A stretch of DNA of 64,000 bases from Anaerolineae bacterium. GTDB taxonomy: Bacteria > Chloroflexota > Anaerolineae > Aggregatilineales > UBA3940. Position numbers and translations under genes: made by a program. Positions 38,919-63,383 of the stretch are shown here, piece after piece. The notes below the pieces were generated by a model. That model saw only the letters and a list, made by a program, of their open reading frames with translations, was not told the origin of the DNA and searched no databases. The stretch is from NCBI GenBank assembly GCA_034435035.1, contig DAOTXW010000060.1, positions 1,586 to 65,585 on the forward strand, written 5' to 3'. Numbering within the stretch: the stretch's first letter is position 1; each line of letters starts with the position of its first letter.

Positions 38919-39983
38919 TTACAGGGGCCGCCAGGGCAGCGGCTCGTTGCGGTCGCGGCCCGGCACGTAGTGGAGCCGCTCCTGCATCGGGCGGGTGAGC
39001 GCACGGTTGATGGCGCACAGCGGGATGTTCTGCGGGCAGGTGGCCTGGCACATGCCGCAGGCCGAGCAGCTCATCAGCCGCTGGCTGTGCTGAATCAGCG
39101 CGGCGATGAAGCTCGTCTGCCCCTGGCCCAGCGCCGCCGAAAGCTCCTCGCTGCACATCGGGCATGCCTGCAGGCACTCCCCGCACAGGTTACACTGGCT
39201 CAGGTAGCCGAGGATCGCGCCCAGGCTGGCATCCCGCAGCCCCAGGGATTCCAGTTTGCGGTCGGCGGCCTCCTGCCGCTGCTCGCTGAGCCGCCAGACG
39301 GCTACCTCGCGCTCCACCGTCTCGCGCTCGGTCGCCAGCCGGTCGGTGAGGGCGGCCAGCCGGAAACGGGCATCGTCGCGTTCGCTGGCGATCACCAGCA
39401 GCTTCTGGCGGGCGTCCAGCCCGATCAGGCCGACGAGGATATCCGCCGCCAGGTAATCGGCGCTGGGGCGGTCGCACAGCTGGCAGGCGGCGCGGTAGCG
39501 GTAGGGCGCGATCTGGCCGCGCTCCGCGAAGCGCAGCGATTCGTGCATCAGCCACAGCGGGTCTTCAGGGTGCCCGGCGCTGACTTCGTGATAGAAATCC
39601 TCGTCATAGGTGCCGAGACAGTCCACGCCGATCAGCACCACGCGGCCCAGGTCGATCTGGCCGCGCTTGGCCAGCTCGATGACGGCGCGGACCTCGCAGG
39701 GCCGCAGCAGAGCCGCAAAGGTCAGGCCCGGTTCAGCGCCGAGGGCCTGGCGCAGCGCCAGCGCGGCGTTCTCGGTCATCAGGGGCACCAGCGGGTTGAT
39801 CCGCTGCGCGCCTTCCCGGTCCCCCAGCGACTGGGCGCGGGCCACAGGCAGCCCATCCTGCAGCAGCTCCACCGGCGCGAACAGCCGGTCGGCGATGCCT
39901 TCGGCCAGCATCTTCCCGGCGAAGCGGCGCAGCGCAGCCACCGTATCATTGTTCTGTACGTCCACTACCCGGCTGATCCACAT
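38919..39983 (-). CDS. FrhB/FdhB-like flavin/Fe-S protein with two C-terminal [4Fe-4S] motifs
   Basis: ..LLRPCEVRAVIEL.. resembles the FrhB PCQ region. CNLCGECLQACP and CSACGMCQATCP are present. The ATG at 39983 is preceded by GGGGAGGA, 14 nt after the upstream stop. Confidence 0.65.
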   Translation of the reverse strand: MWISRVVDVQNNDTVAALRRFAGKMLAEGIADRLFAPVELLQDGLPVARAQSLGDREGAQRINPLVPLMTENAALALRQALGAEPGLTFAALLRPCEVRAVIELAKRGQIDLGRVVLIGVDCLGTYDEDFYHEVSAGHPEDPLWLMHESLRFAERGQIAPYRYRAACQLCDRPSADYLAADILVGLIGLDARQKLLVIASERDDARFRLAALTDRLATERETVEREVAVWRLSEQRQEAADRKLESLGLRDASLGAILGYLSQCNLCGECLQACPMCSEELSAALGQGQTSFIAALIQHSQRLMSCSACGMCQATCPQNIPLCAINRALTRPMQERLHYVPGRDRNEPLPWRPL

Positions 39984-57389: not shown

Positions 57390-57418
57390 TTGACGTTCCT
57401 CGCCGGGCGTGTTACGAT
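57390..57418 (+). promoter_or_regulatory. Promoter candidate TTGACG-17 nt-TACGAT for the T-box leader
   Basis: Hexamers at 57390-57395 and 57413-57418. The predicted transcription start is near 57425. Confidence 0.55.
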
Positions 57419-57424
57419 TGACGC

Positions 57425-57731
57425 AATCGATAAAGACAGGCTGTGACGGAAACGAGCAGGCGGCCCGCCGCCCTCCCAGCGAGCCCGGATCGGTGAGAGC
57501 CGGGCAGGCGGCCCCGCCGAATATCCTTCCGGAGCCGCCGGGCCGAAAGCGCCCCGTCCGGTCGGGGCGTCCACTAAGCCCTGCCGGGCCCACCGCCCGT
57601 TACCCCGGTGCGGCAGCCATCGCGCAGCCGGACGAGCGCTGCGGGCGGGCCACCGTCCGCAGAATCAGGGTGGTACCACGGGAGAGCTGCGCTCTCGTCC
57701 CTTGCGGGACGGGAGCGTTTCACGTTTAATT
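57425..57731 (+). promoter_or_regulatory. T-box riboswitch leader (Stem I, T-box sequence, terminator/antiterminator)
   Basis: - T-box sequence AGGGUGGUACCACG at 57667-57680.
- Terminator CTCTCGTCCC-ttgc-GGGACGGGAG at 57692-57715, followed by a T-rich tail.
- The alternative antiterminator pairs AGGG/CCCU and ACGGGAG/CUCUCGU around a UGGUACC bulge.
- Stem I has an AG bulge (AGCGA, 57478-57482) and a distal loop AUCGGUGAGAG closed by GCCCGG/CCGGGC (57483-57505).
- K-turn-like GGCU-GUGA-CGGAA / UUCCG-GA-GCC.
- The Specifier-loop 3' side reads GAAUAUCC (57519-57526). Confidence 0.8.
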
Positions 57732-57763
57732 GGATCAGGCTGGCGCACGGCAGGTGCCCGACA

Positions 57764-58498
57764 ATGACCGAACTGATCTACCAGACCGACAGCTACCAGC
57801 AGACCTTCAGCGCCCGCGTCACCGGCGTGGATGAAGTGAACCATGCGGTCCTGCTCGATCGCACGGCCTTCTACCCCGGCGGCGGCGGTCAGCCCTCCGA
57901 TCAGGGCTGGCTGACAGTCGAAGGCAAGCCTTACCGCGTGCTGAAGTGCGCGAAGGCCCCGGCAGGGGTGCTGCACCTCCTGGAGCGCGCGCCTGACGGC
58001 GGGCCGCGCCTGCCCCGGCTGGCTGCGGTGGCGGACGGCGCGATCGACTGGGAGCGCCGCTACCAGCTCATGCGCACCCATACCGCCATGCACATCCTGT
58101 GCGGCGTGATCTTCCGCGACTACGGCGCATCGGTCACCGGCGGGGAGATGGAACCGCTCAGGGGTCGTATGGACTTCGAGTTCGAGACGATGCGGCAGGA
58201 GTTTGTGCGCGAGATCGAGCAGAAGATCAACGTTGAGGTCGCGGCGGCCCGCCCCGTCGAGGCCCGCATCCTGCCCCGCGAGGAGGCTTTCCGGATCCCC
58301 GACCTGATCCGGACGAAGATCAACCTGCTGCCGGAGGGCATCGCGCAGGTGCGTGTCGTGGAAATCGTGGGCCTTGACCTGCAGGCAGACGGCGGCACCC
58401 ATGTCCGCAGCACAGCCGAGGTGGGCCGCCTGCGGGTGGTGGACTACAAGAGCAAGGGCCGGATCAACAAGCGCATCTATGTGGAGGTTGAAGCCTAG
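57764..58498 (+). CDS. AlaX-type (alanyl/threonyl-tRNA synthetase editing-domain) trans-editing protein
   Basis: ..DRTAFYPGGGGQPSDQG.. N-domain. HxxxH (THTAMHILCG). ..LQADGGTHVRSTAEVG.. has Asp where AlaRS/AlaX usually has the CxxxH Cys. ATG at 57764 preferred. Confidence 0.8.
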   Translation: MTELIYQTDSYQQTFSARVTGVDEVNHAVLLDRTAFYPGGGGQPSDQGWLTVEGKPYRVLKCAKAPAGVLHLLERAPDGGPRLPRLAAVADGAIDWERRYQLMRTHTAMHILCGVIFRDYGASVTGGEMEPLRGRMDFEFETMRQEFVREIEQKINVEVAAARPVEARILPREEAFRIPDLIRTKINLLPEGIAQVRVVEIVGLDLQADGGTHVRSTAEVGRLRVVDYKSKGRINKRIYVEVEA

Positions 58499-59208
58499 TG
58501 CGTGTGCTGCATGAGCCGCAGCCCGGAGAACAGCTGGTGGCCCGCGGACGCTACCGCTATCTGCGGCATAACCAGCCCACCGGACAGATCGAGACGTGGC
58601 AGATCAGCCGCCTGCCGGATGGATCGGAGGTGGTGCGGGCGGATGTAGATGGGCGGGGGGCCGCCGGTGCGCCCAGCCTGCTCAGCCACCTGCAGCGCCG
58701 TCCGACGCACCATCTGGACTGGCTGCGGCTGCGGCTCGAGAAGGGCGGCTTTGCGGCGGCGGCTCACTATACCTTTGAAGAGGCCCAGGTGAACACGGCC
58801 CGTCAGGCGCAGGACTTCCCGCGCCGCCAGGAGTCCCTGGAAATTGCCGCCAACTATGTGGTGGACTATCATCCTGTGATCGCGCATGATTATGTATGGC
58901 GCGGGTATCCACCCCAGGCGGAGGGCAAGGCCTGGTCGATCCCCGTCTTCAGCCCCGACCTGTGGGCGCCCGGCGAGGACGTGCTGGGCGGACGTGCGCT
59001 GCGCTTCACCATCACGCCGCTGCCGCCGGAGACCTGCGCGGTGCCTGCCGGGCAGTATCCGCAGGCCCTGCGCTACCGGATTGTCCTGAGCGACGGCGTG
59101 GTCGCTCTGGCGTGGTTCGATGCAGCGGGCATCCCGCTGCGCTGGCTGTACCCTGAGAAGGGATACGATTTCGTGCTGGAAGAATACATCAGGGAAGATC
59201 ATGTCTGA
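58498..59208 (+). CDS. Hypothetical protein
   Basis: The GTG start overlaps the AlaX stop (TAGTG). Codon usage is coherent. I recognise no family motif. Confidence 0.6.
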   Translation: MRVLHEPQPGEQLVARGRYRYLRHNQPTGQIETWQISRLPDGSEVVRADVDGRGAAGAPSLLSHLQRRPTHHLDWLRLRLEKGGFAAAAHYTFEEAQVNTARQAQDFPRRQESLEIAANYVVDYHPVIAHDYVWRGYPPQAEGKAWSIPVFSPDLWAPGEDVLGGRALRFTITPLPPETCAVPAGQYPQALRYRIVLSDGVVALAWFDAAGIPLRWLYPEKGYDFVLEEYIREDHV

Positions 59209-60007
59209 TTACAGCCAGCGGATGGCCCGGGCCAGCGCTCGAATCGCCGAACTGGAAACCCGGCTTGGCCAGGTATGTGGCCGATACGTTGAGATGATCC
59301 ATGTGATGGGCAAGTTTCTGATTCGCTACCGCGAAGAGATCGCGCCCTATCACCTGGCGCTGGCTCTGGTGCAGCGCGAGATTGCTGACGTCCGGGGTCT
59401 GCTGGGCGACCCGGAAGCGCTGGAGCGAGGCGAGGCGAATACCCCGCTGAGTCGTCTGCTGGCCGAGCAGCTGTCGCCTTCGGTTGAGGAGCAGTTCGAG
59501 CGCGTCTGGAGAGGCAAACCCGCGCCGAACCTGGGGATGCAGGAGGCGCTCGCGCCGCCCTCCGCCGAGGTCAGCGCGCTGTATGCGCGGGCTGTGGCGC
59601 TGACACATCCCAGCCTGGCGCCTGACCTGCAAAGCCGTCGGCAGCAGATCCGCCTGTTCAACGATGTGAACCGGGCCTATCTGCGCCGCGATGCTAACAC
59701 CCTGAGGCTGCTGGTGGAATCGCGCACGGCGCACAGCAACCTGCCGCAGTTCGTCGATGAGCAGACAGTGCGGACGCAGGAGGAGCGCGCCTACGCGCTG
59801 GAGCAGGTGATCGCTGAAATGGAAGCCCTGCTGGCGGATCTGAGCTACGGCGAGGCCGCCCGCCTGCAGGCGCAGGCCCGTCTGGAGAGCGAGTCAGGCC
59901 GCGATCTGCTCGTCGATCTCAACGCGGCGATCCGGGCTGAGCTGGCGACCGCAGAAAGAGAGCTGGCCGCGCTGAAGGCCCGGCTGGGCCCGCAGCAGCC
60001 GGGCTGA
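59201..60007 (+). CDS. Hypothetical coiled-coil protein with a degenerate J-domain-like segment (HPS instead of HPD)
   Basis: The ATG at 59201 overlaps the upstream stop (ATGTCTGA). The segment ..LYARAVALTHPSLAPDLQSRRQQIRLFNDVNRAYLRRD.. aligns by eye with J-domain helices II and III. Confidence 0.6.
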   Translation: MSDYSQRMARASARIAELETRLGQVCGRYVEMIHVMGKFLIRYREEIAPYHLALALVQREIADVRGLLGDPEALERGEANTPLSRLLAEQLSPSVEEQFERVWRGKPAPNLGMQEALAPPSAEVSALYARAVALTHPSLAPDLQSRRQQIRLFNDVNRAYLRRDANTLRLLVESRTAHSNLPQFVDEQTVRTQEERAYALEQVIAEMEALLADLSYGEAARLQAQARLESESGRDLLVDLNAAIRAELATAERELAALKARLGPQQPG

Positions 60008-60121
60008 CTGATCAAGGGGGTGATCCGATGATGCTGCGCCGCTCTGCCGCAGCCTGCTCGATTAGCGGGGGGACCCCACGCCCTCTCATGCGCCGCGGCT
60101 GACCGTCTGTCGCGGGGCTGG

Positions 60122-60155
60122 GAGGCGGCGCACTGCGCCGCCTCTGTGTTTGTCT
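60122..60155 (+). terminator. Intrinsic terminator or attenuator 37 nt upstream of ileS
   Basis: GAGGCGGCGC-act-GCGCCGCCTC, a 10-bp perfect stem followed by TGTGTTTGTCT. Confidence 0.65.

Positions 60156-60191: not shown

Positions 60192-63383
<3,192 letters not shown>

Follow-up and report, generated by a model that had tools for sequence, protein, structure and literature searches.

Isoleucine T-boxes upstream of ileS form the most widespread class of T-box and have been reported in Chloroflexi (Dehalococcoides), Deinococcus and Actinobacteria (PMC2494555; TBDB). Those that act on transcription, as in B. subtilis and S. aureus and in Dehalococcoides and Deinococcus (PMC2494555), match the leader analysed here in their long Stem I, which contains a K-turn, a Specifier loop, an AG bulge and a distal loop. 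They also have the same Stem II, Stem IIA/B element, F-box and Stem III, and the same AGGGUGGUACCNCG with a UGGU bulge and competing terminator and antiterminator. The translational ileS T-boxes of Actinobacteria, exemplified by M. tuberculosis and N. farcinica (PMC7583486), have a short Stem I, carry the specifier in an apical loop and sequester the Shine-Dalgarno sequence. A search of the literature for a link between T-boxes and AlaX returned no paper.

The leader described here lies on the forward strand of a 64,000-nucleotide stretch of DNA from an Anaerolineae bacterium, analysed as a whole and referred to below as the window. It stands in front of a gene for an AlaX-like editing-domain protein. 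An earlier note on this DNA had called it a T-box riboswitch, and every hallmark element listed there was found where it had been placed. The T-box is genuine: it aligns with the full length of the family model, its Stem I covaries among orthologs, AUC and UGGU are invariant, and the terminator and antiterminator helices are mutually exclusive. We propose, with a probability of about 0.85, that it acts by attenuating transcription, as a class-I T-box riboswitch with specificity for tRNA-Ile(GAU). The elements of the leader are as follows.

57390-57418, forward strand: sigma-70-like promoter, TTGACG, 17-nt spacer, TG-extended TACGAT
57440-57537, forward strand: Stem I, from the Rfam alignment and covariation on 20 leaders
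within 57440-57537, forward strand: K-turn in Stem I, GCUGUGAC.../...GGAGC
57448-57451 with 57527-57530, forward strand: lower stem of Stem I, closing the Specifier loop
57478-57482, forward strand: AG bulge AGCGA in Stem I
57483-57505, forward strand: distal stem-loop, with loop AUCGGUGAGAG around 57489-57499
57523-57525, forward strand: predicted specifier AUC (Ile), invariant in 20/20 leaders
57538-57612, forward strand: Stem II region including Stem IIA/B, from the Rfam alignment and elements common to the orthologous leaders
57597-57602, forward strand: F-box CCGUUA, in the Stem IIA/B element
57639-57662, forward strand: Stem III, CUGCGGGCGG-GCCA-CCGUCCGCAG, from the Rfam alignment and the minimum-free-energy fold
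57667-57680, forward strand: T-box sequence AGGGUGGUACCACG, 14 nt
57671-57677, forward strand: bulge UGGUACC, 7 nt, within the T-box sequence
57667-57702, forward strand: antiterminator with helices A1 AGGG/CCCU and A2 ACGGGAG/CUCUCGU, -11.1 kcal/mol for the designed structure
57689-57728, forward strand: intrinsic terminator, a 10-13 bp stem with a UUGC loop (57689-57718) and then CGUUUCACGUUU, -25.8 kcal/mol

The covariance model RF00230 matches positions 57434-57705 over its full length (model positions 1-219) at 51.4 bits, and this is the sole RNA-family match in the window. The match is significant (E = 2.4e-10 in a search of 601 nt; E = 2.5e-8 in the whole 64-kb window, both strands), though under the Rfam gathering score for this family, which is 93. 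A scan of the whole window at the gathering threshold accordingly returned no match, and the T-box surfaces only with E-value reporting.

Orthologs place the leader more firmly within the family. Taking one genome per species, we collected 80 loci that encode relatives of the AlaX-like protein at 62-72% identity; the relatives of the window belong to the class Anaerolineae of the Chloroflexota. At 19 of the 80, the motif GGUGGUACC(G/A)CG lies upstream of the alaX-like gene on the same strand. Seventeen of these leaders are directly upstream of that gene, at a distance of about 70-275 nt; at L060 a GNAT gene stands between leader and alaX-like, and at L055 about 1.9 kb separates the motif from the gene. 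All five ortholog loci submitted to Rfam gave a full-length RF00230 match (L023, 121.3 bits; L049, 112.9; L018, 87.3; L064, 84.9; L013, 56.7), the first two exceeding the gathering score. Because these loci match the model over its full length, the family assignment is secure despite the sub-threshold copy in the window. Every architectural feature of a T-box that could be checked is present, except for the purine 3' of the specifier and, in the window copy only, a score above the gathering threshold.

The promoter-like site is the single one in 1 kb and arose in 0 of 50 shuffles, and similar TTGAC-N17-(C/T)ATAAT boxes, equally far ahead of Stem I, are found in the orthologous leaders. We propose a model in which transcription would start just 3' of this site (57390-57418). 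Stem I (57440-57537) would offer AUC (57523-57525) to the anticodon, and the platform formed by the AG bulge and distal loop would touch the tRNA elbow. The 3' ACCA of an uncharged tRNA could pair with UGGU (57671-57674) and stabilise the weak antiterminator (57667-57702). Once formed, the antiterminator would block the much stronger terminator (57689-57718), allowing read-through into the alaX-like gene, the two overlapping open reading frames that follow and, most likely, ileS. Charged tRNA-Ile would be unable to stabilise the antiterminator, and transcription would stop at about 57720-57730. Binding of tRNA-Ile and read-through under isoleucine limitation are both what we infer from the sequence.

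The switch between the two helices is apparent in the leader itself. The 3' strand of the antiterminator is also the 5' arm of the terminator, with 57692-57702 as the common strand, and it is the terminator that appears when the complete leader is folded to minimum free energy. The two structures, which the earlier note had taken to be alternatives, are indeed mutually exclusive (-25.8 against -11.1 kcal/mol), and the same arrangement is found in 20/20 leaders. In all 19 orthologous leaders the antiterminator's 3' strand doubles as the 5' arm of a strong hairpin with a U-run behind it; these are T-boxes that attenuate transcription. Their U-tracts are clearer than that of the window. The U-tract of the window terminator (CGUUUCACGUUU) is weak.

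Covariation in Stem I was assessed on an alignment of 20 segments, from the window and its 19 orthologs, against an explicit T-box Stem I structure. In this alignment 96.3% of cells are paired, compared with 81.9% in shuffles, none of 500 being as high, and sliding the 3' partners out of register left at most 47% paired. Compensatory double changes occur in 13 of the 15 Stem I pairs, the lower stem contributing all four of its own, which supports the model with K-turn, AGCGA bulge and distal loop that the earlier note had drawn. RNAalifold on its own suggested a pairing between the specifier's UC and the GA, itself invariant, of CGAGUA; we rejected this pairing, which has no covariation and conflicts with T-box architecture. 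In Stem II, an S-turn-like GAA…ACUA is present in the window and reads AGUA in the orthologs.

Downstream of the leader the window contains the following features.

57764-58498, forward strand: alaX-M-like gene, 244 aa, with tRNA_SAD and the C-terminal part of tRNA-synt_2c
58498-59208, forward strand: open reading frame of 236 aa, its start overlapping the stop codon of the alaX-like gene
59201-60007, forward strand: open reading frame of 268 aa, overlapping the preceding one by 8 nt
60121-60145, forward strand: GC-rich 11-bp hairpin and then GUGUUUGUCU, in the 185-nt gap before ileS
60192-63383, forward strand: ileS (isoleucyl-tRNA synthetase), TIGR00392 at 940 bits, with a DUF5915 C-terminal domain

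For the two proteins encoded after alaX-like, which the earlier note had listed as unknown, searches of Pfam, NCBIfam and PDB with the 236-aa and 268-aa sequences gave no match. Homologs of the 236-aa protein occupy the same position in L001, L013 and L039, and homologs of the 268-aa protein are found in the same three loci. The gap between the second of these frames and ileS is 185 nt.

The linkage of ileS to the T-box extends well beyond this window. Using tblastn with the window's proteins, and setting aside three of the 19 T-box contigs that end too early, we found ileS downstream on the same strand at 16/16 T-box loci, as against 9/48 loci without a T-box (Fisher p = 4e-9, a value not corrected for phylogeny). 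At L064 and L018, ileS follows alaX-like directly, with gaps of 6 nt and 86 nt. The other T-box loci have one to four variable genes in between, which encode WD40-like proteins, PD-(D/E)XK and Mrr-type nucleases, IS200-like transposases, GNAT proteins and an amidase; flanked by two constant partners, the spacer has the look of a hot-spot for insertion. Divergent T-boxes were sought in loci with alaX-like and ileS that lack the motif, and none was found in any part of these loci (L014, L016, L041, L047, L065; L001, L002, L003, L005, L007). When the AlaX-like proteins were placed on a neighbour-joining tree, those from loci with a T-box grouped in a few coherent clades, and an ancestral unit of Ile T-box, alaX-like and ileS is the simplest reading.

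The downstream IleRS proteins form two divergent lineages, with 58-67% and 32-38% identity to that of the window. The DUF5915 C-terminal domain was present in 4/4 IleRS tested, two per lineage. We considered whether the ileS genes at about 36% identity could be of bacterial type 1, and rejected this, since all those tested carry that domain.

Because the T-box co-occurs with ileS in this way, the best reading of the leader is an Ile T-box belonging to an alaX-like…ileS cluster, rather than the riboswitch of an editing gene with unclear specificity. The suggestion in the earlier note that a nearby ileS makes AUC attractive was correct, and it is the central point.

How far the T-box reaches in this particular window is a matter of the gap before ileS. 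The hairpin at 60121-60145 has a tail (GUGUUUGUCU) much like that of the T-box terminator, and may itself act as a terminator, internal or partial. On account of this hairpin we regard co-transcription of ileS with alaX-like here as only somewhat more likely than not; ileS may be only partly under T-box control in the window, or not at all. It is possible that the Ile T-box governs only alaX-like and the two open reading frames, the hairpin ending the transcript and ileS being expressed separately. An 11-bp GC-rich stem with such a tail would suit that role, and the T-box with AUC is kept at L068 even with a convergent class IV aminotransferase gene between alaX-like and ileS. At L068 the Ile T-box can govern only alaX-like, which shows that a T-box can persist on alaX-like alone. 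However, the 185-nt gap of the window, including the 46 nt from the hairpin to the start of ileS, contained no promoter-like site, and a search in front of ileS, here and at all loci, turned up neither another T-box nor any other known leader. The gap is only 39 nt, without a counterpart of the hairpin, at L013, which has the same gene order, and ileS directly follows alaX-like at L064 and L018. Moreover, an Ile specifier without an Ile-related target would be left unexplained. We therefore consider a T-box restricted to the first three genes doubtful in this window, though it is the most serious of the alternatives, and presume that ileS is the ultimate target of the Ile T-box.

The first gene of the cluster is the least expected. 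AlaX-M proteins (NF040865; P. horikoshii AlaX-M, PDB 2e1b; AlaRS domains 2zze and 2ztg) have the same two-domain layout as the window protein, an N-terminal barrel and an editing core with tRNA_SAD, and the HxxxH and GGTH motifs are common to both. The window protein scores 266.5 bits against NF040865, under the equivalog cutoff of 300. Its HxxxH is kept (HTAMH), whereas CxxxH has become DGGTH: QADGGTH aligns with the QACGGTH of the archaeal AlaRS editing domains (2zze, 2ztg), with Asp in place of the zinc-ligand Cys. A free-standing AlaX-like protein with Asp at that position, as the earlier note had described it, is thus borne out by the domain matches and the alignment. The Asp is invariant in 25 close homologs. 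Of the best 150 representatives of 50%-identity clusters, 103 bear the motif, and 78 of these have the Asp, Cys returning in more distant ones. The change is family-wide and not peculiar to the window. A distant homolog with the Asp variant, P0123, is encoded by a gene that stands alone, no ileS or T-box adjoining it, and the linkage of alaX-like, ileS and T-box is for that reason taken as lineage-specific.

Most likely, the AlaX-like gene is simply a co-transcribed neighbour of ileS. It is tempting to speculate that the Asp-variant protein is instead a functional partner of IleRS or tRNA-Ile, for example in trans-editing or quality control when charging of tRNA-Ile is low. We think this improbable, and keep it in view because alaX-like is always the first gene, has been retained alongside two divergent IleRS lineages and despite insertions of selfish genes, and has the T-box to itself at L068. 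Such a partnership, if true, would explain why an Ile T-box keeps alaX-like first in several lineages of the class Anaerolineae.

It could also be argued that the leader is a decaying, non-functional T-box remnant, leaving either a constitutive terminator or read-through. Its RF00230 score is under the gathering threshold, its U-tract is weak, its S-turn reads ACUA for AGUA, and a C stands in place of the purine after the specifier. Decay has a precedent in a close relative: L001, the nearest relative with the same order of alaX-like and two open reading frames, has a homologous leader with the bulge UAGUAUU, a disrupted Stem I and no Rfam detection. That leader is a decayed T-box copy with its terminator kept, so decay does happen in this lineage. 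In the window, however, the T-box sequence, UGGUACC, both antiterminator helices, the K-turn, the AG bulge, the distal loop, the F-box and AUC are all intact. The low score goes with a leader stretch of 74% G+C and insertions relative to the RF00230 model, and L013, another ortholog of high G+C, also reaches only 57 bits. The earlier note had rightly remarked on the missing purine, which is C57526 in the window. Yet the nucleotide 3' of AUC is C in 19/20 leaders, including those above the gathering threshold, with A only in L057. The pyrimidine is thus a trait of the lineage rather than damage. The presence of Stem II, Stem IIA/B and the F-box in these leaders makes it plausible mechanistically; published data on ileS T-boxes with Stem II show that they can almost do without a purine in that position (PMC7583486). 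We consider decay of the window leader very improbable.

The specifier, in which the earlier note had seen an ambiguity between Tyr (UAU) and Ile (AUC), is clarified by comparison of the leaders. The 3' side of the Specifier loop consists of eight nucleotides, GAA-N-AUC-(C/A), bounded by the covarying lower stem; in the window it runs from G57519 through AAUAUCC to 57526, which gives GAA-U, AUC and then C57526. The nucleotide before AUC, the first base of UAU, is A in 16 of the 20 leaders, U in three (the window, L039 and L050) and G in one, and the UAU frame reads AAU in 16 and GAU in one. In the Rfam consensus GAAauuca the columns aligned with AUC are 'uuc', and AUC occupies the +0 frame, one nucleotide before the lower stem and at positions 2-4 when the bulge is counted from its 3' end. 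Because AUC is invariant, the UAU frame mostly reads AAU or GAU, and AUC is the +0 frame, the supposed ambiguity falls away: AUC is the predicted specifier and tRNA-Ile(GAU) the predicted ligand.

Other observations in that note on tRNA specificity hold. No alanine codon is present in the Specifier loop, and UGGU, found in 20/20 leaders, predicts a tRNA with A73. Bacterial tRNA-Ile carries A73, which fits UGGU, and tRNA-Tyr likewise has A73 and is compatible with it. The +1 frame, UCC, was rejected: it would need a tRNA-Ser with G73, which is incompatible with the UGGU of all 20 leaders. A tRNA-Ile gene with A73 and a GAU anticodon was sought in the window and the 80 loci, and none was found.

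That the leader senses tRNA-Tyr through a UAU placed right after the S-turn GAA is barely credible: UAU does follow GAA in the window, L039 and L050, and tRNA-Tyr would suit UGGU, but the frame conserves no amino acid among the orthologs (AAU in 16, GAU in one), it is the -1 frame relative to the lower stem defined by covariation, the cluster has ileS and no Tyr-related gene, and specifiers ending in U seldom have a matching tRNA. In the specifier rule of TBDB the "+0" frame has priority, and for U-ending specifiers a matching tRNA pair was found for only 8.6% (bioRxiv 10.1101/2020.06.17.157016).

Beyond this one locus, the analysis brings an AlaX-like editing-domain protein into the set of genes under T-box control. 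It also provides a clear candidate ligand, tRNA-Ile, and a regulon for a leader in a GC-rich genome that standard annotation misses, since its Rfam score is under the gathering threshold. For automated specifier calling there is a caution, as a codon taken directly after GAA would give the wrong amino acid here. Finally, these leaders constitute a lineage-wide T-box variant with a pyrimidine 3' of the specifier, which fits structural work in which Stem II relieves the need for a stacking purine.

In their capacity for more than one codon, the leaders resemble the overlapping-codon ('NT-box'-type) T-boxes of dual specificity mentioned in TBDB, as the Specifier bulge is likewise long enough for three frames. 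Unlike in that type, only AUC is both conserved and compatible with UGGU here; NAU and UCC either vary or need a G73 tRNA. With the translational ileS T-boxes of Actinobacteria (PMC7583486) the window leader has Ile (AUC) specificity in common. Also in common are a Stem II S-turn and pseudoknot, which stabilise the codon-anticodon duplex, so that the 3' purine matters less. The window leader differs from them in having a full-length Stem I, an elbow-binding platform and an intrinsic terminator. It is closest to the transcriptional ileS T-boxes, from which it differs in the C, not a purine, 3' of the specifier and in a score below the gathering threshold. With these it has the AUC specifier and control of ileS in common, but ileS is not first here: alaX-like always is, with zero to four variable genes between the two. 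The mechanism is thus an ordinary one, and only the first gene is unusual.

Two genes of 236 and 268 aa lie between the AlaX-like gene and ileS in the window, and loci encoding close relatives of the window's AlaX-like protein (L-numbers here) show how variable this interval and the leader ahead of it have been:
window 58498-60007 (+), two ORFs translationally coupled to the AlaX-like gene
window 60121-60145 (+), 11-bp GC-rich hairpin, GGAGGCGGCGC-ACU-GCGCCGCCUCU, followed by GUGUUUGUCU
L068 1424-2476 (-), class IV aminotransferase gene (branched-chain or D-amino-acid type), convergent to alaX-like
L042 6743-7189, L049 7448-8230, L051 6802-7359 and L055 6785-7387, selfish or defence-type genes in the alaX-like/ileS spacer

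Neither ORF has a match in Pfam, NCBIfam or PDB, and L001, L013 and L039 carry conserved counterparts of both at this position. The GC-rich hairpin ends 46 nt ahead of the ileS start codon and has no counterpart in L013, where the gap is just 39 nt. It may terminate or attenuate transcription internally, or else act as an RNA-stability element. At L068 the aminotransferase gene separates alaX-like from ileS and leaves only the former within reach of the Ile T-box in this genome. The spacer genes at the other four loci encode a PD-(D/E)XK nuclease, an Mrr-N/NOV_C protein and IS200-like transposases, and the spacer appears to behave as an insertion hot-spot within a T-box-controlled cluster.

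The leaders themselves have also changed:
L008 5680-5770, L068 270-400, L078 5700-5830 and 5900-6000, short-repeat insertions, tandem or inverted
L001 3730-4112, leader homologous to the window's T-box

In several orthologous leaders such insertions are located in or beside the Stem II region and past the terminator; L008, for instance, has repeats of GAGAUAGAGACUG, and L078 has arrays of ACGUAAA/UUUACG. Together with those in L068, they show that the middle region of the leader tolerates large inserts. The leader of L001, the closest relative sharing the window's gene order, is no longer picked up as a T-box by Rfam. Its T-box bulge is mutated to UAGUAUU, there is a large insertion in Stem I, and the specifier has changed from AUC to AUU, with the terminator hairpin still present; because of this combination it looks like a T-box in decay.

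Elsewhere in the window, ARAGORN calls a 94-nt 'tRNA-Ala (cgc)' at 39660-39753 (+). It looks atypical in length and sequence, Rfam finds no tRNA there, and the call is probably a false positive.

The AlaX-like protein differs from the CxxxH pattern at one zinc ligand:
window 58388-58402, QADGGTH motif, Asp at the zinc-ligand Cys position of CxxxH

Among the best 150 of the 50%-identity cluster representatives of AlaX-like homologs (P0121-P0270), Asp replaces this Cys in 78 of the 103 that bear the motif, and Cys is kept in more distant relatives. The Asp-for-Cys change defines a large AlaX-M-like subfamily.
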